The notes: a model not told the origin generated them from the letters alone. 64,000 bases of DNA from an uncultured Bacteroidota bacterium (GCA_963783855.1 CAWAPE010000001.1:88985-152984), one strand, 5' to 3'; shown: positions 2,972 through 42,259, numbered from the stretch's first letter. Made by a program: numbers and translations.

Positions 2972-3904
2972 TTACATAACCAGCGCCATAATTGCTTTCT
3001 GAACGTGTAGCCTGTTTTCAGCTTCATCAAATATTACAGAGTTAGGAGAATCAGCAACTTCATTTACCACTTCATCACCACGGTGAGCAGGAAGACAATG
3101 CATAAATAAATAATCGTCCTTTGCATTTTTTACCATAGCAGGATTCACCTGGTAAGCTGCAAATTGCTTTTTCCTTTCATCTGATTCTTTTTCCTGTCCC
3201 ATACTTGCCCAAACATCTGTATAAATAATATCAGCGTCCTTCACAGCCTCAACAGGATTATCCAGTATTTCAATTTTACTTCCCATATACTTTGCGTTTG
3301 CCTCTGAATTTTTCACGATTTCAGAATCCGGCTTGTAGCCAGAGGGAGTGGCGATTGCGATATCCATTCCAACTTTTGAACAACCGTGCAGAAGACTGTG
3401 GGCCATATTATTTCCATCACCCACATAAGCAAGTTTTAATCCGCGAAGTTCTCTTTTCTTTTCGAGAATTGTAAAAAGATCGGTCAATACCTGGCATGGA
3501 TGCAACAGGTCAGTAAGCCCGTTAATAATAGGAATACTTCCATATTTTGCAAGATCAACTACATCCTGATGGTCGAAAGTTCTGATCATAATTCCACTTA
3601 AATATCTCGATAAAACTTTTGCCGTATCTGAAATATTTTCACTCTTTTTTAACTGGAGATCATTCTGATTAAAATAAAGTCCAATTCCACCAAGCTGATA
3701 AATTCCTACTTCAAAAGATATTCTGGTTCTTGTTGAAGGTTTGGCAAAAATCATCCCGAGTGTTTTACCTTCCAATACTCTGTGAGGCTGGCCTGTAATC
3801 ACTTTTTCTTTTAGATTTTTACTAAGCTCAAATACCTGGTAAATTTCTTCCAATGACAGATCATTAATTGAAATTAAACTTTTTCCTTTCATGTTTACTG
3901 ACAT
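2972..3904 (-). CDS. argF: Ornithine carbamoyltransferase
   Basis: 310 aa with STRTR, HPCQ, DVWASMG and HCLP motifs of OTCase. Whether it acts catabolically (arcB) or anabolically is unresolved. It lies next to carbamate kinase. Confidence 0.9.
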   Translation of the reverse strand: MSVNMKGKSLISINDLSLEEIYQVFELSKNLKEKVITGQPHRVLEGKTLGMIFAKPSTRTRISFEVGIYQLGGIGLYFNQNDLQLKKSENISDTAKVLSRYLSGIMIRTFDHQDVVDLAKYGSIPIINGLTDLLHPCQVLTDLFTILEKKRELRGLKLAYVGDGNNMAHSLLHGCSKVGMDIAIATPSGYKPDSEIVKNSEANAKYMGSKIEILDNPVEAVKDADIIYTDVWASMGQEKESDERKKQFAAYQVNPAMVKNAKDDYLFMHCLPAHRGDEVVNEVADSPNSVIFDEAENRLHVQKAIMALVM

Positions 3905-3921
3905 ATATTTTCCCTTATTTT

Positions 3922-4866
3922 TCAGTTTATAATAATTCTGGTTCCACTTTCCGGATCATTCAATTTTGCGGAATCCGTAATAATAGTTTCCTTTCCGCCT
4001 CGTTTTAAAAATCCTATTGCCGCTTGAATTTTTGGTTTCATACTTCCTTCACCAAACTCTCCTGCCTCCAGGTACTTTTCCGCTTCTTCTACAGTAATTT
4101 TATCGAGCGCCTTTTGCCCTGGTTTATTAAAATTAATATATACTTTGGAGACATCTGTAAGCATATAAAAAGCATCTGCCCCAATCTCAGAAGCGAGCAA
4201 TGCTGAAGCTGAATCTTTATCTATCACGGCTTCAATACCCTGCAACAATTTATTTTCGTCCTTGTAAACCGGGATACCGCCGCCGCCGCTGGCAATTACA
4301 ATGTTTCCTTTAGTAACAAGATTTTTTATTGTTTTCTTATTCAGAATGTCTAACGGATAAGGTGAAGCAACAACTCTGCGCCATCCACGTTTACCAGCAT
4401 CTTCTTTAAATATCCAGTTGTGATTTCTCATCAACAATTCCGCTTCTTCTTTCAGGAAGTATGCCCCAACAGGTTTCGTCGGGTTCTGAAAAGCGGGATC
4501 ATCTTTCTCAACGAGTACCTGGGTAACAACTGTAACAACATTTTTCCTGATCTTATTTTCAGTCAAAACGTTTCTCATTTCCCGCTCAACCATGTAACCA
4601 ATTCCACCCTGCGAATCTGCAACGCAAATATCGAGAGGCATTTTAGGAATTTTATAAATTTTATATCCCGCATCATTGCGTAAGAATATATTTCCTACCT
4701 GCGGCCCGTTGCCATGTGTTATTACAAGGTTGTAATCATTCTTTAATAAGTTTACCAGATTCTCACAACTGTCATGTGAATTTTTATCCTGTTGTTGAAT
4801 TGTACCAATTTCGCTCCCTCTTAAAAGAGCATTTCCACCCAGAGCGACTACTGCAAGTTTTTTCAT
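3922..4866 (-). CDS. arcC: Carbamate kinase
   Basis: 314 aa; VVALGGNAL and ITHGNGPQVG motifs and length typical of carbamate kinase. Confidence 0.9.
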   Translation of the reverse strand: MKKLAVVALGGNALLRGSEIGTIQQQDKNSHDSCENLVNLLKNDYNLVITHGNGPQVGNIFLRNDAGYKIYKIPKMPLDICVADSQGGIGYMVEREMRNVLTENKIRKNVVTVVTQVLVEKDDPAFQNPTKPVGAYFLKEEAELLMRNHNWIFKEDAGKRGWRRVVASPYPLDILNKKTIKNLVTKGNIVIASGGGGIPVYKDENKLLQGIEAVIDKDSASALLASEIGADAFYMLTDVSKVYINFNKPGQKALDKITVEEAEKYLEAGEFGEGSMKPKIQAAIGFLKRGGKETIITDSAKLNDPESGTRIIIN

Positions 4867-5128
4867 AATATCCCGATAGAGTCTGTAATTTATTTTCCGT
4901 AAATAATAAAAAAATGGGAAGTAAAAATGATGATATGTTTAGCAATTCGTTAAATTTCTCCATTTTTTCCCCGTTGAAGAATCCAAACTGTTTAATTCTC
5001 CGACTTTAAATTTACTGACATTTGGCTTCAAAATAAATCAAAAATTGTATTCTATTATATACCTGTTAAAATTTGGACTATTTTTATATCTTCAATTATT
5101 ACTTTTAAAAGCCATTTTACTTTATTTT

Positions 5129-5725
5129 ATGCAAAACAAAACTAACCTGAACGATTGGCTGCAGCCTGAAAATATGATTCGCCTTTATTCACGAGGTGCT
5201 TTTCCGATGGCTGATGAAATTACCGGCGAAATTAACTGGTACCTGCCGGAAATTCGTACGATAATTCCCCTCAATAATTATAACTACCCGCGCTCATTAA
5301 GAAAATCAATTAAAGAACAAAACTTCGAATTTCGTTACGATCATAATTTTCTTCCCGTAGTAAAGGCCTGCGCAAACAGGGATAAAACATGGATATCGGA
5401 TAAACTTATTTCTTCATATTTAAAATTGCAGGAGCTTGGCCACACCCATACAGTTGAGACATGGCAGGATGGTGAACTTGTAGGAGGGCTTTACGGAATT
5501 TCTTACGCAGGAGCATTTTTTGGTGAATCTATGTTCTCAATAGTTTCACAGGCATCAAAAGCGGCACTAATAAAATTGATAGAGCATTTAAATGAAAAGA
5601 ATTTTGTTATGCTGGACGTCCAATACATAACTCCGCACCTGGAAATGTTTGGAGCTGTGGAAATTTCTTTCGAAGAATACAACCGGCTTTTGCAAATGGC
5701 CTATCGGAGAGAATCTATATTTTAA
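5129..5725 (+). CDS. aat: Leucyl/phenylalanyl-tRNA--protein transferase
   Basis: Track ORF starts at 5045 with a low-complexity extension. Homology begins at ATG 5129 (MQNKTNLNDWLQPENMIRLYSRGAFPM; GGLYGISYAGAFFGESMFS). Confidence 0.85.
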   Translation: MQNKTNLNDWLQPENMIRLYSRGAFPMADEITGEINWYLPEIRTIIPLNNYNYPRSLRKSIKEQNFEFRYDHNFLPVVKACANRDKTWISDKLISSYLKLQELGHTHTVETWQDGELVGGLYGISYAGAFFGESMFSIVSQASKAALIKLIEHLNEKNFVMLDVQYITPHLEMFGAVEISFEEYNRLLQMAYRRESIF

Positions 5726-5735
5726 TAATATTGAA

Positions 5736-5766
5736 AAAATCCCTCCTATTTGAGAGAGGGATTTTC
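5736..5766. terminator. Bidirectional intrinsic terminator hairpin between aat and the M24 peptidase gene
   Basis: ATCCCTC (5739-5745) pairs with GAGGGAT (5756-5762), flanked by an A-run and a T-run, between convergent genes. Confidence 0.7.
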
Positions 5767-5840
5767 CCGAAAGGATGCCTTTGGCAAGGAAGAGTTTTTA
5801 CTTTACAAGTATTATTTCCTTCTGCGGATCGGAAATAAAT

Positions 5841-6989
5841 TCACATCCGTCTTTTGTGAACTACTACCATTTCCTCCAATGTTGAAACACCGTAACCTTT
5901 AACTGGCAGTCTGGGTTCAATTGTAAACACCTGGTTTTCTTCGACTTTCATATAGGGAGTTTGTCCGTACCTTTCCCATCTCGGAAGTAATCCGCAGCCA
6001 CCGTCGTGAACTTTTCTGCCAACCTGGTGACCAAGACCGTGTGCATATTCTTCGTAACCTTTTCCTGTTATATAATTGCGCGCTATGTCATCCATGTCGC
6101 AACCAGCAACGCCCGGCTTTAGTGCATCAGCTACTTTTTGAATTGCGTCCCTGATTATTTCAAATCCCTTTTGAACATCAGCCGGTTCTTTATCTTCCCC
6201 ATCCTTCAAAACATACCAGGTTCTCTGTAAATCGGAACAATATTCTTTATACTTAATTCCGAAATCCATATTTACCATGTGGCCTCTTTCAACCTTTCTG
6301 TTAGTTGATCCGGAGTGTGGGCCGTGTGGGTCCGGTCCTGTAAAAACCGCAGGGCAATGATCCTCTTCCCAGGCAAGTTCGAAACCTTTTGCTTTGGCTG
6401 ATGCTTTAACAAAATCTGATATCTCATTTTCACTTACTCCCGGCCTGATGAAATTCGTTACTCCATCAAAAATTATTAGAGTTTCTTTTATCGCTTCTTT
6501 CATTATTTCAAGTTCGGTAGAGGATTTTCTTCCTTTCAGTGCTGAAATAATTTCTTCTGCCGAAACAAGTTTATTCTCAAAACCTGTTCCTTTTAAATGT
6601 TCAATCAGATTTAGATAAAGTCCGTAAGTCAGTCCGTCGGACAGAACAGAACTTTGGGAATAATTGATTGCAATTGTTTTGGGATTTTTTTTCTCCAGGT
6701 ATTCCCGTAATGGCTCCCTCACAGATTTCAGGTAACCAATTACATTTTTGAAGCCACTAATATTTTCAAAATTTTCCTGTTCCATTGAACCAACTATAGC
6801 AGTTGTTTCTCCGTCTCTATTAATAATAAAAGCAGATTCCCAGGTACTGTTTCTTCCCAAAATTATTTCAAGCACCGGATCAGTAATGATTGAACTTTCT
6901 CTTACAAAAGTCATCCACATATCTATGTTTTTTTCATTCAGAATTTCTACAGCCTGGTCTATTTTTTCCTGCATTATTTTCTGATTCAT
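5841..6989 (-). CDS. M24 family Xaa-Pro aminopeptidase/dipeptidase
   Basis: 382 aa; metal-ligand pattern NMDFG..CSDLQRT, HGLGHQVG, FTIEP, LEEMVVV; creatinase-like N-terminal domain. Confidence 0.8.
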   Translation of the reverse strand: MNQKIMQEKIDQAVEILNEKNIDMWMTFVRESSIITDPVLEIILGRNSTWESAFIINRDGETTAIVGSMEQENFENISGFKNVIGYLKSVREPLREYLEKKNPKTIAINYSQSSVLSDGLTYGLYLNLIEHLKGTGFENKLVSAEEIISALKGRKSSTELEIMKEAIKETLIIFDGVTNFIRPGVSENEISDFVKASAKAKGFELAWEEDHCPAVFTGPDPHGPHSGSTNRKVERGHMVNMDFGIKYKEYCSDLQRTWYVLKDGEDKEPADVQKGFEIIRDAIQKVADALKPGVAGCDMDDIARNYITGKGYEEYAHGLGHQVGRKVHDGGCGLLPRWERYGQTPYMKVEENQVFTIEPRLPVKGYGVSTLEEMVVVHKRRM

Positions 6990-7296
6990 ATTATTTCCTC
7001 CATAAAATTCCAGAAATTGACAAAACTAAATTATAATCTATCAAATAACGTTAAAACTTACCAGAAACCCGAAATTGCCGGACACAATAATGTAAAAATT
7101 TCGCCTTAAGCAGTTAGTTTTTCATTAAAAAATCGCTAATTTTCATGCAGCAAATACGGAGATTTTTGAATTTATCTCAGCGACTAAATTTTCATGAATT
7201 ATTACAACATATTTTCCGCGAATAAAACATCACAAATCTCAATTATAATTAAGGGGAATATCACTTAAAAACATTTAATGTTAAGAGGTTATTATT

Positions 7297-8637
7297 ATGT
7301 CCGAGTATACACAAAATCTGGTGGCAAGAGTAAAAATGCAGAATCAAAATGAACCTGAATTCCACCAGGCAGTTGAAGAGGTTGTTGAATCATTAGACTT
7401 AGTTCTGGAAAGACATCCGGAATATAGATCATCAAAAATTTTAGAAAGAATGGTAGAACCTGAAAGAGTAATTATTTTCAGAGTTCCATGGATGGACGAT
7501 CAGGGAGAAATTCACATCAACCGTGGTTACAGAATTGAAATGAACAGCGCAATCGGGCCTTACAAAGGCGGATTAAGATTTCACCCTTCTGTGACTATTG
7601 GAATATTAAAATTTTTAGCATTCGAACAAGTATTTAAAAATAGTTTAACTACTCTGCCTATGGGCGGCGGTAAGGGTGGATCTGATTTTGATCCAAAAGG
7701 AAAAAGTGATAATGAAGTAATGAGATTCTGCCAGAGTTTTATGACTGAATTATTCAGACACATTGGACCTAATACTGACGTTCCTGCCGGCGATATCGGC
7801 GTGGGCGGAAGAGAAATAGGTTATTTGTTTGGTCAGTATAAAAGATTAAGAAACGAATTTACAGGTGTTCTTACCGGTAAAGGATTAAATTGGGGTGGTT
7901 CACTAATCAGACCTGAAGCAACCGGATACGGAGCAGTTTATTTTGCACATGAAATGTTGAAAACAAAAGGACACGATATTGAAGGTAAGACTTTTGCAGT
8001 TTCCGGTTTCGGAAATGTTGCCTGGGGAGCTGTTCAGAAAATTACACAACTCGGCGGAAAAGTTGTTACAATTTCAGGTCCCGATGGTTTTGTTTATGAC
8101 AAAGAAGGAATATCAGGTGAAAAAATAGACTATATGTTAAAGCTTCGTGCAAGCGCTAATGACAGAGTTAAAGATTACGCTGATAAATTTAAGGTCGAGT
8201 TTTTTGAGGGTAAAAAACCATGGGGTGTTAAAGTTGACGTTGCTATGCCCTGCGCCACTCAAAATGAAATTGACGGGAATGATGCAAAAGAACTCGTTAA
8301 AAACGGTTGTATTTGTGTTTGTGAAGGAGCAAATATGCCAACAACTATTGAGGGTTATAAAGTATTCACCGCGTCAAATATTCTTTACGCACCGGGCAAA
8401 GCTTCAAATGCAGGTGGAGTAGCTACTTCAGGACTTGAAATGTCACAGAACAGTATGCGTCTTCCCTGGCCAAGAGAAGAAGTTGACAGAAGATTACACG
8501 AAATAATGAAAAGAATTCATGACACTTGCATCACAACTGCGGAAAAATACGGTACGCCCGGTAACTATGTTAACGGTGCCAACATTGCCGGATTCCTGAA
8601 AGTTGCAGATGCAATGTTGGACCAGGGTCTGGTATAA
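7297..8637 (+). CDS. gdhA: Glutamate dehydrogenase, hexameric GdhA type (copy 1)
   Basis: 446 aa; KGGLRFHPS, LPMGGGKGGSDFDPKGKSD, GPNTDVPAGDIGVGGREIGYLFGQYK. Confidence 0.95.
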   Translation: MSEYTQNLVARVKMQNQNEPEFHQAVEEVVESLDLVLERHPEYRSSKILERMVEPERVIIFRVPWMDDQGEIHINRGYRIEMNSAIGPYKGGLRFHPSVTIGILKFLAFEQVFKNSLTTLPMGGGKGGSDFDPKGKSDNEVMRFCQSFMTELFRHIGPNTDVPAGDIGVGGREIGYLFGQYKRLRNEFTGVLTGKGLNWGGSLIRPEATGYGAVYFAHEMLKTKGHDIEGKTFAVSGFGNVAWGAVQKITQLGGKVVTISGPDGFVYDKEGISGEKIDYMLKLRASANDRVKDYADKFKVEFFEGKKPWGVKVDVAMPCATQNEIDGNDAKELVKNGCICVCEGANMPTTIEGYKVFTASNILYAPGKASNAGGVATSGLEMSQNSMRLPWPREEVDRRLHEIMKRIHDTCITTAEKYGTPGNYVNGANIAGFLKVADAMLDQGLV

Positions 8638-8680
8638 TTTATTTTATTTCAGACAAATTTATTTTATCTTGTTCATTGAA

Positions 8681-8721
8681 AAGCGAAATTTCCTTAGCCG
8701 GTTATTTCGCTTTATTTTTTT
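8681..8721 (+). terminator. Intrinsic terminator after gdhA copy 1
   Basis: AAGCGAAAT (8681-8689) pairs with ATTTCGCTT (8704-8712), followed by a T-run. Confidence 0.7.
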
Positions 8722-8771
8722 CAAAAGCCGGATAATATATTTTGAATAATAAAGTTTCCAGTTCGTATAAA

Positions 8772-11753
8772 ATGGATGAGACCCGCCAGAATGAGCTCGA
8801 TGATTTCTTCGGCAACAGGATAAAAAAATTCCAGAGATTAATGCACTTCAAAATCCGGGAAATCCTCCTGGTATCAAGCATTTACGATAATTATTTATTC
8901 GAAGAAGACGGACGATTATATGAACTTATCAGGCAGGAATATCAGAATTTAAATCTCAGCCACTCCCCAGAAATTACACACGTAACCAGCGGCAAAGAAG
9001 CGATAGAACTACTAACAAATGAAGATAATTTTGATCTTATAATAACAACTCTCCACATTGAGGACATACACGTAATAAGATTTGCACAGATGGTTCGTGA
9101 AGCAGGAATCAATACTCCTATTATTTTACTTGCCTATGATAACAGGGAAAGGAAAGAACTTGTTACACATTACGACACTTCAATTTTCGAGCGGATATTT
9201 ATATGGCAAGGTGATTATCACCTTCTTATTGGAATTATAAAATATATGGAAGACCGGCTGAATGTTGAAAATGATACAAAAACCGCAGGCGTTCAGACAA
9301 TTATACTGGTAGAAGATAATGTAAAATTTTATTCCTCTTATCTCCCTCTTATTTATACTGAAATATTTAAGCAATCCCAGAGACTGATTTCAGAAGGAGT
9401 AAATTTAACTCACCGATTTTTGAGAATGCGCGCACGTCCTAAAATTTTACTCTGCACTACTTATGAAGAAGCCTGGGATTATTTTGAAAAGTACGAAGAA
9501 TATATTCTTGGTTTAATTCTGGATATAAATTTTAAGCACAATGGCGAGAAAGATCCCGAAGCCGGAATAAAATTTGCCAGAGATGTAAAAGCCCGCCACA
9601 AAGATATTCCCATACTTCTGCAATCGAGTAATGCTGATTTTCTGGCGAAAGCTCATGAAGCCGGTGCTTCATTCCTTCTTAAAGGTTCGCCTACTTTGTT
9701 GCACGATCTGCGCGACTTTATGATGAATAACTTTGGCTTTGGTGATTTTGTATTCCTAATGCCGGATGGCTCAGAGGTAGGAAGAGCAAGAAATTTGAAA
9801 GAAATGGTCGAACTTCTTCAAACTGTGCCCGAAGAAAGTATACTTTATCATGGTGAAGGAAATCATTTTTCAAAATGGCTGAAGGCAAGAACAGAATTCT
9901 GGCTTGCACACAAATTACGCCCAAGAGAAGTTTCCGAATTTGAAACAATCGTAGAATTAAAGGCCCTTATTATTAGCTCAATTAAGGAGTATATAGACGC
10001 AAGGCAAAGAGGTGTAATTACAGACTTTGACAAGGAAAATTTTGATCCGAACAATAGTTTTGCCCGGATTGGATGGGGTTCACTTGGAGGGAAAGCACGC
10101 GGACTGGGATTTATTAATACTCTGATTATGAACTATCATATGCGGAATAAATTTAAGAATATTGAAATCTTTGTTCCCTCTGCAATTGTTATTTCAACTG
10201 ATGTTTTTGATTATTTCATTGAAAAGAACGATCTTGAAAACTTTGCTCTTAATGAAGATGATGACCTTAAAATTACACAAAGATTTATTGAAGCTAAGGA
10301 TTTTCCGCAAGACATAACTAATAAGCTTTCAGATTTTCTGGACATAACGCAGGGACCTTTAGCGATAAGGTCTTCAAGTTTGCTGGAAGATTCACAGTTT
10401 CAGCCTTTTGCAGGTGTATATGAAACTTATATGATTCCAAACAGCAATCCGAAAAAGAATGTTAGATTAAAAGAATTACTTCAGTGTATTAAAAGTGTTT
10501 ACTCTTCAACCTTCCACAAAAAAGCCAAAGATTATATGAAGGCAACTTCATACAGGCTTGAAGAAGAAAAAATGGCCGTAATAATTCAGCGGCTGATAGG
10601 TTCAGAAAAGAACGGAAGATTTTATCCTGATTTTGCCGGTGTCGCTAAATCTTTTAACTTTTATCCCGTTCCTCCGCAAAAAGCCACCGATGGGATTTCA
10701 CAGGTTGCTTTGGGCCTCGGAAAAACAGTTGTTGAAGGTGGAAATACTGTCAGATTCTGTCCGAAGTATCCCAAGCATTTATTACAATTCTTTTCTACCA
10801 AGGAAACTATTAAGAATGCTCAGCAGGATTTTTTCGCACTTGATATAAAAGATCATCTTTTGCAAAAAATTAAAGATGTGGAAGACGTTCTTGTTAAAAA
10901 ATATGATCTGCATAAAGCAGAAGAAGACAATACATTGTATTCTGTAGGCTCTACTTATTCCCCGGAAAATGAAGCAGTTTATGATGGGATCTCAAGAGAT
11001 GGAATGCGGGTAGTAACATTTGCCCCGATTTTGAAACACAATATTTTTCCCTTACCTGAAATTCTTGATATGCTTCTCGAAATAGGAACCTGGGGAATGG
11101 GAACTCCTGTAGAAATTGAGTTTGCTGTAAACCTGGATGTGCCACGGGATAAACCCAAAGAATTTGCAATGTTGCAAATGAGACCGCTTGTAATTCATAG
11201 GGAAAGTGAAGAACTTAATATTGAAGAAGAAGCGCATGACAAAATTATCTGCCAGAGTACCCAGGTACTTGGCAATGGAGTCATTAACGATATTCACGAT
11301 ATTGTATTTGTTGATATTAATAAATTTGAACGTTCAAAGAGTAAAGAAGTCGCTCAGGAAGTCAGCCAGATTAATTCAAAACTACTGAATGAAAAAAGAC
11401 AATATATATTATTTGGTATGGGACGCTGGGGCTCGCTTGATCCATGGCTCGGAATTCCTGTAACCTGGGATCAAATTTCAGGAGCTATTACAATTGTTGA
11501 GGGCGGCTTTAAAGATTTAAATGTAACCCCATCACAAGGTTCTCACTTTTTCCAGAATATTACTTCATTCAGAATCGGTTATTTCACTGTTAATACTTTT
11601 ACTCAAAATGGATTCATAAACTGGGACTGGCTCCTTGAGCAAAAACCAGCAAATGAAACAACTTATGTAAAACATTTGTATTTTAAAGAGTCGCTAACCG
11701 TAAAAATTAGCGGGCATCAAAATAAGGGAATCATACTTAAACCCGGCATTTAA
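8772..11753 (+). CDS. X-1: receiver-like + receiver + PPDK_N-type ATP-grasp protein (PEP synthase-like phosphotransferase of unknown substrate)
   Basis: Track ORF starts at TTG 8742; first ATG is 8772. Domain order: degenerate REC (ILLVSS, FDLIITTLHIED), canonical REC (IILVEDN, LILDINF, LLQSS, FLLKG), then PPDK_N motifs (LGGKARGLGF, AIRSSSLLEDS, PFAGVYETY, MAVIIQRL, LGLGKTVVEGG, EIEFAV..LQMRPL), then a His-containing tail (PSQGSHFFQN). Confidence 0.8.
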   Translation: MDETRQNELDDFFGNRIKKFQRLMHFKIREILLVSSIYDNYLFEEDGRLYELIRQEYQNLNLSHSPEITHVTSGKEAIELLTNEDNFDLIITTLHIEDIHVIRFAQMVREAGINTPIILLAYDNRERKELVTHYDTSIFERIFIWQGDYHLLIGIIKYMEDRLNVENDTKTAGVQTIILVEDNVKFYSSYLPLIYTEIFKQSQRLISEGVNLTHRFLRMRARPKILLCTTYEEAWDYFEKYEEYILGLILDINFKHNGEKDPEAGIKFARDVKARHKDIPILLQSSNADFLAKAHEAGASFLLKGSPTLLHDLRDFMMNNFGFGDFVFLMPDGSEVGRARNLKEMVELLQTVPEESILYHGEGNHFSKWLKARTEFWLAHKLRPREVSEFETIVELKALIISSIKEYIDARQRGVITDFDKENFDPNNSFARIGWGSLGGKARGLGFINTLIMNYHMRNKFKNIEIFVPSAIVISTDVFDYFIEKNDLENFALNEDDDLKITQRFIEAKDFPQDITNKLSDFLDITQGPLAIRSSSLLEDSQFQPFAGVYETYMIPNSNPKKNVRLKELLQCIKSVYSSTFHKKAKDYMKATSYRLEEEKMAVIIQRLIGSEKNGRFYPDFAGVAKSFNFYPVPPQKATDGISQVALGLGKTVVEGGNTVRFCPKYPKHLLQFFSTKETIKNAQQDFFALDIKDHLLQKIKDVEDVLVKKYDLHKAEEDNTLYSVGSTYSPENEAVYDGISRDGMRVVTFAPILKHNIFPLPEILDMLLEIGTWGMGTPVEIEFAVNLDVPRDKPKEFAMLQMRPLVIHRESEELNIEEEAHDKIICQSTQVLGNGVINDIHDIVFVDINKFERSKSKEVAQEVSQINSKLLNEKRQYILFGMGRWGSLDPWLGIPVTWDQISGAITIVEGGFKDLNVTPSQGSHFFQNITSFRIGYFTVNTFTQNGFINWDWLLEQKPANETTYVKHLYFKESLTVKISGHQNKGIILKPGI

Positions 11754-11866
11754 TCTTACAAATTTAGGGGAGAATTTTTACTACAGACAAGCGTAAAACA
11801 TTCTTGCTCATCCTGCGCTTAATTCTACATACCACATACAATACATATAAACTCAAGGAGGCAGTC

Positions 11867-13228
11867 ATGTCGAGCTACGTTTCTGATTTGTTAGCCGAAG
11901 TGAAAGCTAAGAACCCTGCTGAACCTGAATTCCATCAGGCAGTAGAAGAGGTTGCTGAATCTCTATCTCTTGTGTTCGAAAAGCATCCTGAGTACCGCGC
12001 AGCAAAAGTTCTGGAGCGCATTATTGAACCGGAAAGAGTGATCACTTTCCGCGTGCCATGGGTTGATGAACAGGGAGAAGTAAACATCAATCGCGGATTC
12101 AGAATAGAAATGAACAGTGCAATAGGGCCTTATAAAGGCGGCTTACGTTTTCACCCATCTGTAAATCTTGGAATATTAAAATTCCTCGCATTTGAACAAG
12201 TATTTAAAAACAGTCTTACAACTTTGCCAATGGGCGGCGGAAAAGGTGGATCGGATTTTGACCCTAAGGGCAAAAGTGATCTGAAAATAATGCGTTTCTG
12301 CCAGGCATTTATGGGTGAACTCTTCAGACATATTGGTCCTAATACTGATGTGCCTGCGGGTGATATAGGAGTTGGTGGAAGAGAAATCGGATATTTATTC
12401 GGGCAGTATAAAAAACTCAGAAACGAATTTACAGGCGTATTGACCGGTAAAGGATTAAACTGGGGAGGCTCTCTGATCAGACCAGAAGCTACAGGATATG
12501 GAGCTGTTTATTTTGCTGCAGAAATGCTCGGTACAAAAAATGAAACTCTTGAAGGAAAAGTGTGCCTCGTTTCAGGAAGCGGAAATGTTGCACAATATAC
12601 AGTCGAAAAGATACTGAGTCTCGGTGGGAAAGTTGTTACTTTATCTGATTCTAATGGATATATCTATGATGAAGAGGGAATCAATACAGAGAAACTCCAC
12701 TTCGTTATGGAATTAAAAAATGTTCGCCGCGGAAGAATGAAAGAATATGTTGCAAAATATAAAAATGCAGTTTATACAGAAATAAATCCAAAAGATGATT
12801 TCAATCAACTCTGGAATCATAAAGCGCAATGCGCATTCCCGAGTGCAACACAAAATGAAATAAACGGAAAAGATGCACAAAACTTATTAAAGAATGGCGT
12901 GTATGTTGTAAGTGAAGGCGCCAATATGCCTACAACTATAGACGGAGTAAAATTATTCCTTGATAAGAAAATTCTTTACGGTCCGGGAAAAGCTGCAAAT
13001 GCAGGTGGCGTCGCTGTATCAGGTCTGGAAATGACACAAAACAGCATGCGTTTGCCATGGACAAGAGAAGAAGTTGATGAAAGACTAAGAATGATAATGA
13101 AAGATATTCATACAACCTGTATGACTATGGCTGATAGATTCGGCACACCGGGCAACTACGTTAACGGTGCCAACATTGGCGGATTCCTGAAAGTTGCCGA
13201 TGCAATGATGGATCAGGGTGTTGTTTAG
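11867..13228 (+). CDS. gdhA: Glutamate dehydrogenase, hexameric GdhA type (copy 2)
   Basis: Track ORF starts at 11804. ATG 11867 is preceded by AAGGAGG (11855-11861) and aligns with the copy 1 N-terminus (MSSYVSDLLAEVKAKNPAEPEFHQAVEEV). Same catalytic motifs as copy 1. Confidence 0.95.
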   Translation: MSSYVSDLLAEVKAKNPAEPEFHQAVEEVAESLSLVFEKHPEYRAAKVLERIIEPERVITFRVPWVDEQGEVNINRGFRIEMNSAIGPYKGGLRFHPSVNLGILKFLAFEQVFKNSLTTLPMGGGKGGSDFDPKGKSDLKIMRFCQAFMGELFRHIGPNTDVPAGDIGVGGREIGYLFGQYKKLRNEFTGVLTGKGLNWGGSLIRPEATGYGAVYFAAEMLGTKNETLEGKVCLVSGSGNVAQYTVEKILSLGGKVVTLSDSNGYIYDEEGINTEKLHFVMELKNVRRGRMKEYVAKYKNAVYTEINPKDDFNQLWNHKAQCAFPSATQNEINGKDAQNLLKNGVYVVSEGANMPTTIDGVKLFLDKKILYGPGKAANAGGVAVSGLEMTQNSMRLPWTREEVDERLRMIMKDIHTTCMTMADRFGTPGNYVNGANIGGFLKVADAMMDQGVV

Positions 13229-13322
13229 ATTTATTTATTAAATTAATTATGCTGGGACTGCACAGCTGTTTTATACGTGTAGTTCCCGGCTGAATTTAAT
13301 TCATAATTTTCTGCAGGATAAA

Positions 13323-16300
13323 ATGCCCGATCAAGATGAGTCCATAAAAACAAATTTTGACGATTACTGGGTCGAACACGGTTACGGTACCAGGTTCCAG
13401 GGTTTCCAGAACCTAATGCGTCTGCGCGTCCGTGATATACTCCTCGTATCAAGCCTTTACGATCTTTACCTTTTTGAAGAAGACGGGCGGCTCTATGAAC
13501 TTATCAGGAATGAATACCAGGGACTAAATCTCAGTCACTCTCCCGAACTTACAAGAGTTTCCAGCGGGAAAGATGCGATTGCACTTGCCAAAGAAGAAAA
13601 AAGATTCGACCTGATAATTACAACACTTCACATCGAAGACATGCATCCGATAAATTTTGCTACGATGGTAAAAGAATCAGGATTAAATATTCCTGTAGTT
13701 TTACTTGCCCATGATAATAAAGAATTTAAATATTTGTTACTTAAACCTGAAATTGCCGCGTTCGATAAAATATTTATCTGGCAGGGCGATTTCAGAATCA
13801 TTATAGCAATAGTTAAATATCTCGAAGACAAAATGAACATCGATCACGATAGCAGGATCGTCGGTGTTCAAAACATAATTTTTATTGAAGACAACGTAAA
13901 ATATTATTCTTCTTTCCTTCCTGTAATTTATACAGAGATTTTAAACCAATCACAGAGATTAATTTCCGAGGGAATAAATCTAACACACCGATTTTTAAGA
14001 ATGAGGGCCAGGCCCAAAATATTGCTTTGTACAAACTATGAAGAAGCCTGGGATTATTATCAAAAGTACAAAGACCTTGTACTTGGTGTAATTTCTGATG
14101 TAGATTTCCCAAAAGATGGTGAACAAAATCCAACAGCGGGATTAGAGATTGCAAAAGAAATTAAAAAGGAACATCCTGATATTCCCGTCTTGCTTGCTTC
14201 AAATAATTCCGAATATTCTGACACAGCAAAAGAAATAGGAGCATCTTTCGTATTAAAAGATTCAAGTCTTTTATTTAACGACCTTCGCCAATTTATGGTT
14301 CAGAATTTTAGTTTTGGTGATTTTATTTTTAGAACACCGGAAGGTGTTGAAGTTGGTCGTGCTCATGATCTTAAAACTCTTGAAGAACAATTAAAGGTTG
14401 TTCCTGAAAATAGCCTTAATTATCATGGTGAAAAAAATCACTTTTCAAACTGGCTGAAAGCAAGAACAGAGTTCTGGCTGGCACATCAATTAAGACCTCG
14501 TAAAGTTTCTGATTACAATACAGTTGAAGATCTCAGACAGGATCTAATCAATTCACTTCATAATTACAGAAATCTCAGACAAAGAGGGATAATTGCAGAT
14601 TTTCTTAAAGAATCTTTCGATCCTAACAGCAGCTTTGCACGTATCGGCGGAGGATCACTTGGAGGGAAAGCACGCGGACTTGGTTTCGTAAATACACTTA
14701 TTAATAATTATAATGTCCGTGACCAATTTAAAGGTGTACAAATATCAGTCCCATCTGCGGTAGTGCTGGGCACTAACGTTTTCGATCAGTTCCTTGAGGA
14801 AAACAATCTCAGAAAATTTGCTTTAAGTTGCAATGATGATGAAGAAATTACCCGCCGCTTTTTAGAAGCAGAGAGGTTTCCCGAAGATATTCTTGGCGAG
14901 CTTGCTGCATTCCTGGATATTATTCACTCCCCTCTCGCAGTTCGATCATCCAGTCTGCTCGAAGATTCGCAGTATCACCCATTTGCCGGTGTTTATGAAA
15001 CATATATGATCCCGAATAATCATCCCAATCCGCTTATTAAATTAAATGATCTTCTTAATACGATTAAAAGAGTTTACGCTTCCACCTTTTATCAGGGATC
15101 TAAGAATTATATAAAAGTTACAAACTACCGCCTCGAAGAAGAAAAGATGGCAGTAATAATTCAAAAGATGATCGGGGCAAAACACGATCATAAATTTTAT
15201 CCCGAATTTTCGGGTGTGGCAAAGTCCTTTAATTTTTACCCGATGGCACCACAAAAACCCACAGATGGAATTGTTTCAGTTGCTCTCGGTCTTGGCAAAA
15301 CTGTAGTTGATGGTGGAAACACTGTAAGATTTTGTCCGAAATATCCCACGGATTTAATTCAGTTCTATTCAACAACAGAATCACTCGACAGCAGTCAAAA
15401 AGATTTTTACGCATTAAATCTGGAAGGAAATTCAAACTTTGGCTTTGTTACATACGATATGCTCACAGAAAAATTTGGTTTGAATGTTGCCGAAAAAGAA
15501 GGAACATTAAATTTAATTGGAGCAACATACTCGCCTGAAAATGATTCAATTTCGGATGGCATATCCCGACCGGGAATCAGAATTGTAACATTCGGACCAA
15601 TTCTAAAACATAAACTTTTCCCGCTGCCAGGAATTATTGAACTTCTTCTTGATATGGGAACCTGGGGAATGGGGACCCCTATTGAAATCGAGTTTGCCGT
15701 GAATATGTCAGTAAAAAAAGATGAACCAATTCAATTTGGTTTACTGCAAATGAGGCCGCTGGTAATTAACCGTGAACACGAGGAAATTACAATAGATAAA
15801 TTTGAGCCTGAAAAATTATTATGCTACAGTGAACAGGTTCTGGGTGATGGTATTATGAATAATATTTACGACATCATATATGTTGATTATCATTTATATG
15901 ACAGAGCGAAGAGCAGAGATGTTGCAAAGGAAGTAAGTATGTTTAACAGCCAGTTGATGGATGAGGACAGGCCTTATTTATTGATAGGTGTCGGAAGATG
16001 GGGCTCGCTGGATCCGTGGCTGGGAATTCCGGTAACCTGGGAACAAATTGCCGGCGCCCACACAATCATTGAATCTGGATTTAAAGACTTTGCGGTTGAG
16101 CCTTCACAAGGTTCGCATTTCTTTCAGAATTTAACTTCATTTATGATAGGTTATTTTCACGTAAACAGTCATAAAAACCAGGGGCTGGTTAACTGGGATT
16201 GGTTATTAAAACAGAAGCCGGTTGAATCAAAAGTATTTACTAAACATCTTCGTTTTAAATCACCAATAGTAATTAAAATGAGCGGCTATCAGAATAAAGG

Positions 16301-16325
16301 GGTTATTTATAAACCGGAGGAATAA
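13323..16325 (+). CDS. X-2: paralogue of X-1 (receiver-like + receiver + PPDK_N-type ATP-grasp protein)
   Basis: 1000 aa, collinear with X-1 over its full length. Same motifs: ILLVSS, FDLIITTLHIED, IIFIEDN, VISDVDF, LGGKARGLGF, AVRSSSLLEDS, PFAGVYETYMIPN, GRWGSLDPWLGIPVTW, PSQGSHFFQN. Confidence 0.8.
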   Translation: MPDQDESIKTNFDDYWVEHGYGTRFQGFQNLMRLRVRDILLVSSLYDLYLFEEDGRLYELIRNEYQGLNLSHSPELTRVSSGKDAIALAKEEKRFDLIITTLHIEDMHPINFATMVKESGLNIPVVLLAHDNKEFKYLLLKPEIAAFDKIFIWQGDFRIIIAIVKYLEDKMNIDHDSRIVGVQNIIFIEDNVKYYSSFLPVIYTEILNQSQRLISEGINLTHRFLRMRARPKILLCTNYEEAWDYYQKYKDLVLGVISDVDFPKDGEQNPTAGLEIAKEIKKEHPDIPVLLASNNSEYSDTAKEIGASFVLKDSSLLFNDLRQFMVQNFSFGDFIFRTPEGVEVGRAHDLKTLEEQLKVVPENSLNYHGEKNHFSNWLKARTEFWLAHQLRPRKVSDYNTVEDLRQDLINSLHNYRNLRQRGIIADFLKESFDPNSSFARIGGGSLGGKARGLGFVNTLINNYNVRDQFKGVQISVPSAVVLGTNVFDQFLEENNLRKFALSCNDDEEITRRFLEAERFPEDILGELAAFLDIIHSPLAVRSSSLLEDSQYHPFAGVYETYMIPNNHPNPLIKLNDLLNTIKRVYASTFYQGSKNYIKVTNYRLEEEKMAVIIQKMIGAKHDHKFYPEFSGVAKSFNFYPMAPQKPTDGIVSVALGLGKTVVDGGNTVRFCPKYPTDLIQFYSTTESLDSSQKDFYALNLEGNSNFGFVTYDMLTEKFGLNVAEKEGTLNLIGATYSPENDSISDGISRPGIRIVTFGPILKHKLFPLPGIIELLLDMGTWGMGTPIEIEFAVNMSVKKDEPIQFGLLQMRPLVINREHEEITIDKFEPEKLLCYSEQVLGDGIMNNIYDIIYVDYHLYDRAKSRDVAKEVSMFNSQLMDEDRPYLLIGVGRWGSLDPWLGIPVTWEQIAGAHTIIESGFKDFAVEPSQGSHFFQNLTSFMIGYFHVNSHKNQGLVNWDWLLKQKPVESKVFTKHLRFKSPIVIKMSGYQNKGVIYKPEE

Positions 16326-16326
16326 T

Positions 16327-16536
16327 TTGGAAACGGGTAAATCCACGGAGCAATCTGATTCATTAGAATTTTGTCCACATTGCGGGCACAGGTTAAGTCC
16401 CTGGCAACAGGTATTATTGCGGGTAGATCGTGCATTAACCTGTAAGAATTGCTGGTACAGGATAATTCTTGATGTTCCCGGTAAAGACGAAAATGAGAGC
16501 GACACTTCTAAAGAAAAAATTAAGCCTAAAGGATAA
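16327..16536 (+). CDS. Small zinc-ribbon protein (hypothetical)
   Basis: 69 aa; TTG start 6 nt after GGAGG (16316-16320) and 1 nt after the X-2 stop. Two Cys pairs (CPHC...CKNC). Its stop lies 4 nt before the gdh-3 ATG. No ATG start, so uncertain. Confidence 0.45.
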   Translation: METGKSTEQSDSLEFCPHCGHRLSPWQQVLLRVDRALTCKNCWYRIILDVPGKDENESDTSKEKIKPKG

Positions 16537-16540
16537 GAAA

Positions 16541-17788
16541 ATGGAATCATACAATTCATTCAGTGTAGCCAGGCAGCAAATACTCGAAGCAGCAAAAATT
16601 TTAAATCTTGATGATTCAACAACTGAATTACTCAGCCAGCCACAAAGAGAATTTAATTTTACTCTTCACGTCAGGATGGATGACGGAAAGGTTAAGATTT
16701 TCCAGGGTTACAGAATCCAATATAATTTTGCACGCGGTCCTTCAAAAGGTGGAATCAGATTTCATCCCGATGAAACAGTTGATACAATAAGAGCTCTCGG
16801 GTGTTGGATGACGTGGAAAACTGCAGTAGTCGATCTCCCTCTCGGCGGTGGTAAAGGCGGAGTTTGTTGTGATCCTAAAAATATGTCAACCCGTGAGCTT
16901 GAAAAATTATCACGTGAATATATCCGTGCAATTGCGCCTTTGATTGGTGCAAAGAAAGATATTCCAGCGCCGGATGTTTACACAAATCCCCAAACAATGT
17001 CCTGGATGATGGATGAATTTGAAACCATAAAGAACAGGCATGAACCCGGAGTTCTAACTGATAAGCCTCAACAGATCGGCGGAACCGAAGGAAGACGTGA
17101 TGCAACAGCGCGCGGAGGTGTTTATACAGTTCGCGAAGCTTGTAATTCATTTGGATATGATCCGACAAAAACATTTGCAATACAAGGATTTGGGAATGCA
17201 GGTCAGAGAGCAGCTCTTCTTCATCATGAAATTCTGGGAGGAGGAAAGCTCGTTGCAGTTAGTGACTCAAGAGGAGCAATTTATAATCCCGATGGTTTTA
17301 ATTCTACTGAGCTGGTTTCCCATAAATTGAAAACTGGCTCCGTACTTGGGTTCCCGGGTGCAAAAGAAATTGCGCACGAACAATTACTTGAACTTGATGT
17401 TGAAATACTTTACCCGGCAGCACTTGAGAATGCAATCACTTCTCAAAATGCTCCGAATATTAAAGCCAAAGTAATTTGTGAACTTGCTAACGGTCCTACA
17501 ACTCCTGAAGCTGATATTATTCTAAATAAAAAAGGCATCCACGTTATTCCCGATATTCTTGCAAGTGCAGGCGGAGTTACAGTTTCCTACTTTGAAATGG
17601 TGCAGGATAATTACTCATATTTCTGGGATGAACCATTGGTCCATAAAAGATTGGATGAAAAACTCACGCGTGCTTACCATACCGTTATGGAAGCAGTAAA
17701 GGAAAAGAAAGTTCACCCGCGATTAGGCGCAATGGTTGTTGGAGTTGCAAGAGTAGCAGAGGCGTGTAAATTAAGAGGATGGGTGTAA
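16541..17788 (+). CDS. Glutamate dehydrogenase, short (~415 aa) Glu/Leu/Phe/Val dehydrogenase type (gdh-3)
   Basis: Track ORF starts at 16469. Homology starts at ATG 16541, which has an AAGGA upstream. Motifs [38 protein letters not shown]. Confidence 0.9.
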   Translation: MESYNSFSVARQQILEAAKILNLDDSTTELLSQPQREFNFTLHVRMDDGKVKIFQGYRIQYNFARGPSKGGIRFHPDETVDTIRALGCWMTWKTAVVDLPLGGGKGGVCCDPKNMSTRELEKLSREYIRAIAPLIGAKKDIPAPDVYTNPQTMSWMMDEFETIKNRHEPGVLTDKPQQIGGTEGRRDATARGGVYTVREACNSFGYDPTKTFAIQGFGNAGQRAALLHHEILGGGKLVAVSDSRGAIYNPDGFNSTELVSHKLKTGSVLGFPGAKEIAHEQLLELDVEILYPAALENAITSQNAPNIKAKVICELANGPTTPEADIILNKKGIHVIPDILASAGGVTVSYFEMVQDNYSYFWDEPLVHKRLDEKLTRAYHTVMEAVKEKKVHPRLGAMVVGVARVAEACKLRGWV

Positions 17789-17816
17789 AGACCCGGAATT
17801 TTAATCCAGGTCTTTA
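17789..17816. terminator. Hairpin between convergent gdh-3 and gdh-4
   Basis: AGACCCGGA (17789-17797) pairs with TCCAGGTCT (17805-17813) with 1 mismatch, then TTTATT. Confidence 0.55.
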
Positions 17817-17832
17817 TTAAACAAATTAATTT

Positions 17833-24666: not shown

Positions 24667-24721
24667 ACTTTCCTATTGCAAATAAAAGAATTTAAAAATA
24701 ATTAAAGACAGGATACACTTT

Positions 24722-25660: not shown

Positions 25661-25661
25661 G

Positions 25662-27287: not shown

Positions 27288-27309
27288 AATTCCGGGAGAA
27301 ATATTCAGA

Positions 27310-41130: not shown

Positions 41131-41186
41131 TTTAAATTCCTTTTAATTCAATTTTCTATAAGCAAAGGCTCTTCATCAACCGGTTA

Positions 41187-42239: not shown

Positions 42240-42259
42240 TTTCTTTCCACCTTTATTAC

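Follow-up and report, generated by a model that had tools for sequence, protein, structure and literature searches.

Receiver-bearing PPDK-type ATP-grasp proteins genetically linked to GDH: candidates for a signal-controlled regulation of nitrogen metabolism

Introduction

Carbon and nitrogen metabolism meet at GDH and, in most bacteria, no covalent or signal-transduction control dedicated to this enzyme is known. According to a report from the 1980s, the GDH of Bacteroides fragilis is said to be reversibly inactivated in vivo; this report is not used here as evidence. A stretch of 64,000 nt from an uncultured Bacteroidota bacterium (GCA_963783855.1 CAWAPE010000001.1:88985-152984; hereafter, the window) carries three GDH genes interspersed with two long genes, here termed X-1 and X-2, whose homologues are named "phosphoenolpyruvate synthase" or "PEP/pyruvate-binding domain-containing protein" in the databases. 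The question raised by this locus is what such proteins do beside GDH. Literature searches turned up no paper dealing with the X family, a GDH-linked dikinase or DUF5752.

Results

Gene Organization and Domain Architecture

Both X genes were found in the ORF list as described in a first-pass annotation of this DNA, and they encode paralogues with 60% identity and 81% similarity over their full length (Table 1). The start of X-1 is placed at the ATG at 8772, the ORF itself opening at TTG 8742, and the resulting 993 aa are also the length of most of its close homologues. GDH-1 lies 135 nt upstream of X-1, and GDH-2, which is 71% identical to GDH-1, lies 95 nt upstream of X-2. GDH-3 is found 216 nt downstream of X-2 and scores 562 bits with its NCBIfam model, under the cut-off of 750. 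In the gdh-X intergenic gaps, scanning for promoters and terminators gave sites no more numerous than in shuffled sequence. No Rfam match was obtained anywhere in the 64,000-nt window, and a role as anti-phage defence component was rejected, PADLOC giving no hit.

Table 1. Coordinates of the GDH and X genes in the window and of the domains of the X proteins.
Feature	Position (nt)	Strand	Description	Basis
GDH-1	7297..8637	+	gdhA-type (NADP-specific family)	NCBIfam NF006929, 759 bits vs cut-off 536
X-1 gene	8772..11753	+	993 aa	ORF list, translation, Pfam, same-length homologues
X-1 receiver-like domain 1	8844..9251	+	residues ~25-160	Pfam Response_reg stretch 58-125
X-1 receiver domain 2	9294..9716	+	residues ~175-315	second Pfam Response_reg stretch
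X-1 DUF5752-like segment	9783..10007	+	residues 338-412, between receiver and ATP-grasp	Pfam PF19027
X-1 PPDK_N ATP-grasp	10080..11234	+	residues 437-821	Pfam, Foldseek, residue conservation
X-1 C-terminal domain (tail)	11244..11750	+	residues 825-993, 169 aa	GxGRWGSxD from nt 11415, E910, H925
GDH-2	11864..13228	+	gdhA-type	NCBIfam NF006929, 751 bits
X-2 gene	13323..16325	+	1000 aa; X-1 paralogue, same architecture	ORF list, translation, Pfam
X-2 tail	15816-16322	+		motif shared with X-1
GDH-3	16541..17788	+	~415 aa, other (archaeal GdhA-like) class	NCBIfam NF040817

Pfam recognizes Response_reg twice, DUF5752 and PPDK_N in X, and the following order of domains is found in X-1: (i) a pseudo-receiver; (ii) a receiver; (iii) a DUF5752-like segment; (iv) a PPDK_N ATP-grasp; and (v) a His-bearing C-terminal domain. 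The N-terminal 420 residues, that is, the two receiver-type domains and the DUF5752-like segment, had been left out of the first-pass annotation. Other members of the family carry additional N-terminal repeat modules ahead of the common core, for which no family is named by Pfam; judging from these sequences, the input regions of the X family appear to vary as those of signalling proteins do. When X-1 and the Alistipes homologue P0264 were used as queries, each yielded at least 8,000 candidate 90%-identity clusters, and the tail alone matched in 1,528 clusters at 50% identity.

The Receiver Half

Receiver 1 of X-1 is regarded as a pseudo-receiver because it has no phospho-acceptor Asp (the sequence reads DLIITTLHIED) and no acidic pair either, and column counts over 82 homologues revealed no conserved Asp at the end of its beta3. 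Receiver 2 combines the receiver fold with the acidic pair, Asp, Thr/Ser and Lys by which membership of the response regulators is judged: in X-1, this canonical signature consists of E181-D182, D251 (codon 9522-9524), S285 and K304, and positions E181, D182, D251, S/T285 and K304 are kept in 79-82 of the 82 homologues. The corresponding Asp of X-2 is D259 (codon 14097-14099). As for the segment that follows, PF19027 matches X-1 with E=3e-6 in the whole protein and E=1.3e-7 in the excised segment. The presence of a pseudo-receiver, a canonical receiver and a DUF5752-like segment in the N-terminal half marks X as a predicted response regulator with an enzyme-like output, and with its receivers X is better read as an enzyme under signal control than as a metabolic dikinase. 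No histidine kinase is encoded near X, and none is conserved among the neighbours of X in 80 genome loci; X is an orphan regulator.

The ATP-Grasp Domain

The dikinase-type ATP-grasp proposed in the first-pass annotation was borne out by both sequence profiles and structure comparison. Pfam PPDK_N (PF01326) matches residues 437-821 of X-1 with E=9.7e-40 (137 bits vs a cut-off of 27) and residues 445-823 of X-2 (nt 14655-15791) with E=6.8e-35. K441, R533, E539, D540, E783, Q802 and R804, the positions for catalysis and nucleotide binding, are intact in X-1 and conserved in 82/82 homologues. An AlphaFold model of X-1 residues 420-993 (pLDDT 88, pTM 0.87) retrieved by Foldseek only dikinase ATP-grasp domains, namely those of RPH (E=1.7e-13), PEPS (E=5e-10), HpeI (E=2e-9) and PPDK (E=1e-7), with 2ols and 1kbl among the matches. 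In addition, BLASTP aligned X-1 438-657 to PpsA 23-234 (22% identity, E=2e-8), phmmer related X to RPH 5hv6 (E=3.6e-4), and the PpsA motifs cited in the first-pass annotation are indeed present in E. coli PpsA. The absence of a PEP/pyruvate TIM barrel, also claimed previously, holds as well: neither PEP-utilizers_C (PF02896) nor PEP-utilizers was detected by Pfam at E<=1 in the whole protein or at E<=10 in the tail.

The C-Terminal Domain

The tails of both paralogues share the motif GxGRWGSxDPWLGIPVxW...E...PSQGSHFFQN, whose His corresponds to H925 in X-1 (SQGSH925FF, codon 11544-11546) and to H932 in X-2 (codon 16116-16118). Both proteins end 68 residues beyond this His, a figure that replaces the earlier estimate of about 90 aa. 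Positions G884, R885, G887 and E910 are conserved in 82/82 homologues and H925 in 81/82; in another set of sequences, which includes receiver-less forms about 40% identical, H925 is invariant in 77/77. There is also a second, divergent type of tail with the same R-W-G-S...E...S-x-G-T-H-F-F core.

The first-pass annotation had likened this tail to the swivel phosphohistidine domain. The conservation of its His stood, whereas the relation to swivel domains is undetectable by Pfam, PDB profile search, hhalign and Foldseek. The swivel domain PF00391 has no Pfam match in the tail at E<=10; an HMM profile of 41 tails found no PEP-utilizer among all PDB sequences; and hhalign gave a probability of 0.5% against the PpsA swivel alone and of 0.3% against a 14-sequence swivel alignment (E. 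coli PpsA, PtsI and 12 plasmid-borne PEP-utilizers). A model of the tail (pLDDT 90) has no significant Foldseek neighbour in the PDB, the best match having E=0.15; PPDK 1kbl ranks only 30th, its E being 0.83 and its TMq 0.37, the highest TMq among the 50 matches listed. Likewise, the tail reads P-S-Q-G-S-H and does not satisfy the swivel signature G-[GA]-x-[TN]-x-H.

The predicted elements of the tail, when inspected by eye, recall a swivel-like beta/beta/alpha order: a hairpin at the N-terminus is followed by an alternation of three strands and helices, then by a short helix that begins with the His, and a hairpin at the C-terminus closes the domain. A swivel-like layout is not claimed because no resemblance reached significance. 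Having neither a Pfam family nor a neighbour in the PDB (Pfam, PDB profile search, Foldseek), the tail is a new conserved domain. Since it is not detectably related to swivel domains, what points to a phosphocarrier role for H925 is the invariance of this residue together with its position.

Genetic Linkage Between X and GDH

The link to GDH, a mere hypothesis in the first-pass annotation, is strongly backed by gene neighbourhood. A gdhA-type GDH lies at most 8 kb from the X homologue in 61 of the 80 genome loci, which span more than 10 phyla, and half of the loci (40/80) have GDH directly upstream of X, on the same strand and at a distance of at most 400 nt. The GDH-linked loci belong to Ignavibacteriales, Bacteroidota, Calditrichia, Acidobacteriota, Gemmatimonadota, Planctomycetota, Eisenbacteria, Zixiibacteriota, Fibrobacteraceae, Myxococcota (Kofleriaceae) and Bdellovibrionota. 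Clustering of all ORFs over the 80 loci identified GDH as the sole conserved neighbour of X and no other conserved partner gene. The surroundings are GDH-less, with enough flanking sequence, in 13/80 loci, and the Alistipes homologue stands alone.

In related genomes, GDH1-type genes precede X1-type genes, the GDH1-X1 and GDH2-X2 pairings are maintained wherever both occur, and the order X-then-GDH3 recurs (loci L001, L007, L009-L011, L018, L020, L024, L031, L035). GDH-1/X-1 and GDH-2/X-2 are co-duplicated pairs, and the maintenance of the pairing argues for pair-specific protein recognition over a shared metabolite. GDH-1 and GDH-2 are proposed as the partners or targets of X-1 and X-2, respectively.

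The unit formed by the ATP-grasp and the tail is also widespread without a receiver, and it is GDH-linked still. In 5/5 loci, a receiver-less short form of X comes directly after a different class of GDH and is followed by a PPDK_N+NTP_transf_2 protein and a metallophosphoesterase, a cassette whose predicted gene content resembles a set for adding and removing a modification. The linkage between X and GDH suggests an ATP-dependent control of GDH not described before.

Discussion

A Tentative Mechanism

The reading that we favour, tentatively, as its likelihood falls somewhat short of even, is that X modifies its cognate GDH in an ATP-dependent, signal-gated manner by means of the conserved His. 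The process would comprise the following steps: (i) the receiver Asp (D251 in X-1, D259 in X-2) would be phosphorylated by a histidine kinase, thereby gating the C-terminal enzyme; (ii) the ATP-grasp, joined to the His-bearing domain of ~170 residues via a short flexible linker, would bind Mg-ATP and transfer a phosphoryl or pyrophosphoryl group to H925/H932, as in PPDK-type dikinases; and (iii) this group would be passed to, or used to modify, the adjoining GDH (GDH-1 by X-1, GDH-2 by X-2), whose activity would be switched in this way with nitrogen or carbon status. The analysis establishes the architecture, the intactness of the catalytic residues, the invariance of the His, the canonical signature of the receiver and the conserved linkage of co-duplicated genes to GDH; we infer the autophosphorylation of the His, the role of GDH as acceptor and the direction of the regulation.

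A more specific version appears doubtful: X would be a two-component-controlled protein dikinase that covalently switches the neighbouring GDH, in a GlnE-like manner and in more than 10 phyla, a previously unseen phosphohistidine-carrier domain replacing the swivel and the receiver-less cassette representing a second version of the system.

Several observations count against X as a modifier of GDH: the GDH-less loci, the solitary Alistipes homologue, the absence of a nearby histidine kinase gene, the lack of swivel likeness in the tail, and the fact that characterized PPDK_N enzymes, VadK apart, act on small molecules or glucans. None of these characterized enzymes (PEPS, PPDK, RPH, GWD, PigC and HpeHI; PMC12167813) is known to phosphorylate a protein, and VadK is at most a candidate for transfer to its partner enzymes.

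Alternative Explanations

This last point is what an alternative reading builds on, according to which X acts as a dikinase on a small molecule of glutamate, 2-oxoglutarate or ammonia metabolism, namely one made or used by GDH, with a tail that doubles as substrate pocket and a receiver that only tunes the rate. PEPS, PPDK, RPH, PigC/RedH and HpeHI all use small molecules or glucans, an operon-like position beside a metabolic enzyme is what pathway partners typically show, and the dense invariant residues of the tail (R885, W886, D890, E910, S921, H925) could form a substrate site. Nevertheless, we consider it unlikely, since the co-duplication of GDH1-X1 and GDH2-X2 is hard to explain with one shared metabolite, variable N-terminal regions with receivers and extra repeat modules are unusual in pathway enzymes, Pfam recognizes no substrate-binding domain in X and, to our knowledge, the GDH reaction has no plausible phosphorylated product. 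Pair-specific linkage suits a protein-protein partner, and so X might also be a nucleotide or energy sensor that binds GDH with no chemistry on it: the ATP-grasp and the tail would bind ATP/AMP, and phosphorylation of the receiver would shift the affinity. VadK, for which autophosphorylation and binding to the target enzymes are all that has been shown so far, would be a parallel. What makes such a sensor rather improbable is that all the PPDK-type phosphoryl-transfer residues are strictly kept across phyla and that the His-bearing motif is invariant in two divergent types of tail, whereas simple ligand sensors usually drift more; furthermore, the short-form cassette encodes a metallophosphoesterase and a nucleotidyltransferase, which hints at covalent chemistry.

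A single polypeptide in which a canonical receiver accompanies an invariant His and a domain that uses ATP, with no separate histidine kinase gene nearby, would also suit a self-contained phosphorelay, in which the ATP-grasp and the His domain together serve as a histidine kinase of a non-canonical type for the receiver Asp of X itself (His925 to Asp251), with a conformational output; VadK has in fact been described as a PPDK-derived histidine kinase. This reading seems to us very improbable: the ATP-grasp plus tail without a receiver is common and still GDH-linked, the receiver Asp falls outside the invariant or at least 90% conserved columns of a 16-sequence alignment in which the His is invariant, and no role is left for GDH. 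Finally, the database names of the homologues would make X an ordinary PEP synthase or PPDK, but PpsA residues 23-234 alone align. This candidate was rejected and retains practically no probability, given that there is no TIM barrel and no PF00391 and that X scores 57 bits vs a cut-off of 740 with the NCBIfam equivalog TIGR01418 PEP_synth. Other equivalog scores of X are 50 bits vs 598 for PRK06464, at most 66 vs at least 850 for the PRK06241 models, and 31-36 bits vs a cut-off of 999 for RIF_Ptrans_rph (NF041857), with which the ATP-grasp part alone aligns.

Significance

The X family is very large, and its genetic tie to GDH extends over phyla dominant in soils, sediments and guts. If X modifies GDH, as in the reading favoured here, this would mean (i) a new regulatory layer of nitrogen metabolism; (ii) a second, independent recruitment of a PPDK-type domain for regulation, after VadK; (iii) a new output class of response regulators, with a conserved domain that has neither a Pfam family nor a solved structure; and (iv) the correction of a widespread "phosphoenolpyruvate synthase" annotation.

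Comparison with Known Systems

Large enzymes that covalently switch an enzyme at a branch point of carbon or nitrogen metabolism are exemplified by AceK (isocitrate dehydrogenase kinase/phosphatase), which is encoded within the operon under its control, and GlnE (glutamine synthetase adenylyltransferase). Their likeness to X is a functional analogy only, with no relationship in sequence or fold.

With PpsA and PPDK, X has in common the PPDK_N ATP-grasp and its Lys/Arg/Glu/Gln/Arg active-site motifs, but it is devoid of the swivel (PF00391) and the TIM barrel (PF02896) and adds two receiver-type domains and the new C-terminal domain. RPH (PDB 5hv1, 5fbs), a member of the dikinase family without a pyruvate domain, is the best structural match to the ATP-grasp of X; however, its large domain for rifampin binding and the canonical swivel His domain at its C-terminus are both missing from X. 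In HpeHI and other split dikinases of the phenylphosphate synthase type (PDB 9goj), the ATP-grasp unit is, as in X, apart from the substrate-binding part. But while X carries the His on the same chain, HpeHI-type enzymes, which act on phenolic small molecules, have it on another subunit that comprises a canonical swivel and a substrate domain (PMC12167813).

The closest precedent for X is mycobacterial VadK (Rv1127c, Mycobacterium tuberculosis), a truncated PPDK that undergoes autophosphorylation on His and is a binding partner of methylcitrate-cycle enzymes (bioRxiv 10.1101/2025.10.30.685616). As in X, a PPDK-type ATP-grasp is followed by a His-bearing domain without a PEP/pyruvate TIM barrel. 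VadK differs in that it is an actinobacterial protein of ~490 aa without receivers, its partners are methylcitrate-cycle enzymes and not GDH, and it keeps a canonical swivel domain with His422, overlaid on PPDK structures (bioRxiv 10.1101/2025.10.30.685616), whereas no swivel is detectable in the tail of X. In any case, VadK has been proposed to control central-metabolic enzymes by contact and not to make PEP (bioRxiv 10.1101/2025.10.30.685616).

Gene array and its surroundings

Five genes of the window lie in one same-strand array: GDH-1, X-1, GDH-2, X-2 and GDH-3 (see table). The glutamate dehydrogenases (GDHs) encoded by GDH-1 and GDH-2, both gdhA-type, are 71% identical, and the paralogous proteins X-1 and X-2 are 60% identical from end to end; GDH-3 is of another class.

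With a fourth, convergent member, the Glu/Leu/Phe/Val (ELFV) dehydrogenase family has four genes in 12 kb, and this fourth gene also adjoins the array in three loci (L011, L012, L018). Genes flanking the array indicate amino-acid breakdown: they encode two enzymes of the arginine deiminase pathway, ornithine carbamoyltransferase and carbamate kinase, as well as M24, M1 and M13 peptidases. An amino-acid permease, adjoined by peptidase and dehydrogenase genes, is fused to PTS EIIA-2 and TrkA_C domains, an unusual regulatory tail for a transporter. Two efflux systems are also present, and G+C locally reaches 0.41-0.44 at the RND efflux genes, against ~0.37 elsewhere.

Features of the window and of related loci (window positions unless a locus is named)
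Feature	Position	Strand	Remarks
GDH-1	7297-8637	+	
X-1	8772-11753	+	993 aa
X-1 H925 codon	11544-11546		
GDH-2	11864-13228	+	
X-2	13323-16325	+	1000 aa
X-2 H932 codon	16116-16118		
GDH-3	16541-17788	+	
ELFV dehydrogenase	17833-19005	-	390 aa; convergent to GDH array
ELFV dehydrogenase family	7297-19005		four genes
Catabolic flanking gene(s)	2972-4866	-	
Catabolic flanking gene(s)	5841-6989	-	
Catabolic flanking gene(s)	19387-21021	-	
Catabolic flanking gene(s)	30960-33005	+	
Amino-acid permease	21730-23826	-	698 aa
Efflux system 1	24052-28614	+	TetR regulator with HlyD, MFS, OEP
Efflux system 2	37996-43582	-	RND pump (AcrB-like, 1044 aa) with HlyD, OEP
Alistipes X homologue	8001-10979 (L083/L084)		~40% identical
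Short-form cassette (other phyla)	~4600-11900 (L099-L101)		L081, L082, L099, L100, L101

Domain architecture of X

X couples a dikinase-type ATP-grasp domain to a new conserved domain, in an architecture that is itself new. Pfam assigns PPDK_N to both proteins, at 437-821 in X-1 (E=9.7e-40) and at 445-823 in X-2 (E=6.8e-35), and the PpsA motifs that the first-pass annotation had quoted are found in the actual E. coli PpsA sequence (PpsA 23-234 versus X-1 438-657: 22% identity, E=2e-8, BLASTP). An AlphaFold2 model of X-1 residues 420-993, built from 77 sequences of 38-93% identity, is confident (pLDDT 88.4, pTM 0.87), with a less confident segment (pLDDT ~70) between ATP-grasp and tail (residues 825-993). 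Its significant Foldseek matches in the PDB are dikinase ATP-grasp domains only: rifampin phosphotransferase (RPH; 5hv3, E=1.7e-13), PEP synthase (PEPS; 2ols, E=5e-10), HpeI (9goj, E=2e-9) and PPDK (1kbl, E=1e-7). Residues K441, R533, E539, D540, E783, Q802 and R804, which align with the PpsA motifs GGK, RSS..ED, (I/V)E(W/F) and QxRP and which we take to be the counterparts of the PPDK catalytic residues, are kept in 82/82 sequences; the domain looks catalytically competent. Neither a PEP/pyruvate TIM barrel nor the swivel phosphohistidine domain PF00391 is detected in X by Pfam; this, together with scores below the curated cut-offs, excludes an ordinary PEP synthase.

The tails of X-1 and X-2 have in common the motif GxGRWGSxDPWLGIPVxW...E...PSQGSHFFQN, whose histidine (H925 in X-1, H932 in X-2) is followed by 68 residues in both proteins. 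H925 occurs without exception both in a set of 16 diverse full-length members and in 77 sequences including short forms, and is kept in 81/82 genomic homologues, as are S921 (81/82) and G884, R885, G887 and E910 (82/82). Used alone as query, the tail, which is a family of its own, matched 1,528 clusters at 50% identity. Most are proteins of ~1000 aa; others are of ~580 aa, and a further group of 1500-1650 aa has two tail copies. A second, divergent tail type, found in long proteins, retains the core GPGRWGS...E...SFGTHFFQD.

The loose resemblance of the tail to a swivel domain, as noted in the first-pass annotation, was not borne out. No swivel match was obtained (i) in Pfam at E<=10; (ii) when all PDB sequences were searched with a 41-tail profile; (iii) by hhalign against the PpsA swivel (probability 0.5%) or a 14-sequence swivel alignment of E. 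coli PpsA, PtsI and 12 plasmid-borne PEP-utilizers (0.3%); or (iv) by Foldseek with the tail-alone model (pLDDT 90, pTM 0.89), whose best E was 0.15, PPDK 1kbl ranking 30 (E=0.83, TMq 0.37). The tail is therefore treated as a new conserved domain with neither a Pfam family nor a solved relative. By eye, the predicted order of its elements resembles the beta/beta/alpha swivel layout, which is an impression and not a result. Of the earlier proposal, the ATP-grasp, the conserved histidine and the absent barrel stand, and a swivel identity is not supported.

Far from being a spacer, the first 420 residues, left undescribed there, hold a DUF5752-like segment and two stretches of the Response_reg family (Pfam). 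In the alignment of X-1, X-2 and 80 genomic homologues, the first receiver-like domain (DLIITTL...) lacks the acidic pair and the acceptor Asp and is for that reason a pseudo-receiver. The second has a complete, canonical signature (E181 82/82, D182 79/82, D251, S/T285 and K304 81/82 each), which makes X a response regulator whose output part resembles an enzyme. Extra N-terminal repeat modules precede the same core in P0224, P0234 and P0249, and some relatives (~586 aa) lack an N-terminal region altogether; variable N-terminal regions in front of an unchanging ATP-grasp+tail core are characteristic of a signalling output module. The repeat (~130 aa, ...WQYPE...EGPFL.EE..LL...) occurs in 1-4 copies, and the Pfam search named no family for it; a similar module joins the two halves of P0132.

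Genomic association with GDH

One genome per species was scanned, and the loci span, among others, Ignavibacteriales, Bacteroidota, Calditrichia, Acidobacteriota, Gemmatimonadota, Planctomycetota, Eisenbacteria, Zixiibacteriota, Fibrobacteraceae, Kofleriaceae (Myxococcota) and Bdellovibrionota. Among the best 80 of at least 600 matches, tblastn with the GDHs of the window located a gdhA-type GDH inside the 8-kb flanks in 61 loci, within 400 nt of X on either side in 49, and directly upstream on the same strand (<=400 nt) in 40; 13 loci with adequate upstream flank had no GDH. Chance adjacency is, by our own estimate, ~1%, given a few GDH genes per genome. Clustering of all 2,138 ORFs of the 80 loci gave no other conserved neighbour, histidine kinases included. 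GDH is a well-supported new genomic partner of X-type dikinase-like enzymes, and the connection first offered as a hypothesis is strongly backed at the level of gene neighbourhood.

In Ignavibacteriales, X1-type genes are always preceded by GDH1-type and X2-type by GDH2-type genes, also in genomes with both pairs (L001, L009, L020); therefore, the gdh-X module was duplicated as a unit whose partners stayed together. The link is not universal, since the homologue of Alistipes (gut Bacteroidales) adjoins no GDH gene, the linkage having been lost or never present in that lineage.

In other phyla, a receiver-less short form (ATP-grasp+tail, ~585 aa) is encoded immediately downstream of a GDH of another class (~380-428 aa) in 5/5 loci examined, followed by a PPDK_N+tail2+NTP_transf_2 protein of ~1060 aa and a convergent metallophosphoesterase; L082 departs from this, with an additional 228-aa ORF before the NTP_transf_2 protein, which there has 860 aa. 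These kinase-like, nucleotidyltransferase and phosphoesterase genes resemble a modification/demodification set. The two PPDK_N proteins are fused in some genomes (P0132, P0143, P0248; 1520-1650 aa).

Possible mode of action

For the architecture, catalytic and receiver signatures, invariant histidine and GDH linkage observed here, the best-supported reading, at somewhat below even chances, is a receiver-gated, ATP-charged histidine enzyme acting on its cognate GDH. As to autophosphorylation, acceptor and physiological direction, we infer that (i) receiver phosphorylation would gate the enzyme; (ii) the ATP-grasp domain would use Mg-ATP to charge the invariant histidine of the C-terminal domain; and (iii) the cognate GDH would be acceptor or target.

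X might instead be a small-molecule dikinase, which is unlikely: the co-duplicated GDH-X pairs, like the variability of the N-terminal regions, speak for a protein as target rather than a metabolite. Rather less probable is a non-catalytic, nucleotide-sensing partner of GDH, and an internal His-to-Asp relay between the invariant histidine and the receiver seems the most doubtful of the three.

Comparison with known systems

No paper on the X family was found in the literature searched, and databases name its members 'PEP/pyruvate-binding domain-containing protein', 'phosphoenolpyruvate synthase', 'CheY-like' or 'histidine kinase'. With RPH, PEPS, PPDK and HpeHI, X has only the ATP-grasp domain in common, and it falls outside all four by swivel domain, substrate domain and curated score cut-offs.

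The closest precedent is VadK (Rv1127c), a PPDK in which the TIM barrel has been lost; it undergoes autophosphorylation on His422 and binds enzymes of the methylcitrate cycle (bioRxiv 10.1101/2025.10.30.685616). Genes for ~506-548-aa 'pyruvate, phosphate dikinase' products on Diaphorobacter and Streptomyces plasmids (H16, H22; L093, L096), too short to contain a TIM barrel, may encode VadK-like truncated PPDKs. VadK and X are alike in the layout of ATP-grasp and His domain without a pyruvate domain, and in the idea that a metabolic enzyme is regulated. Three features set X apart: its non-canonical His domain, its receiver inputs and its partner, GDH.
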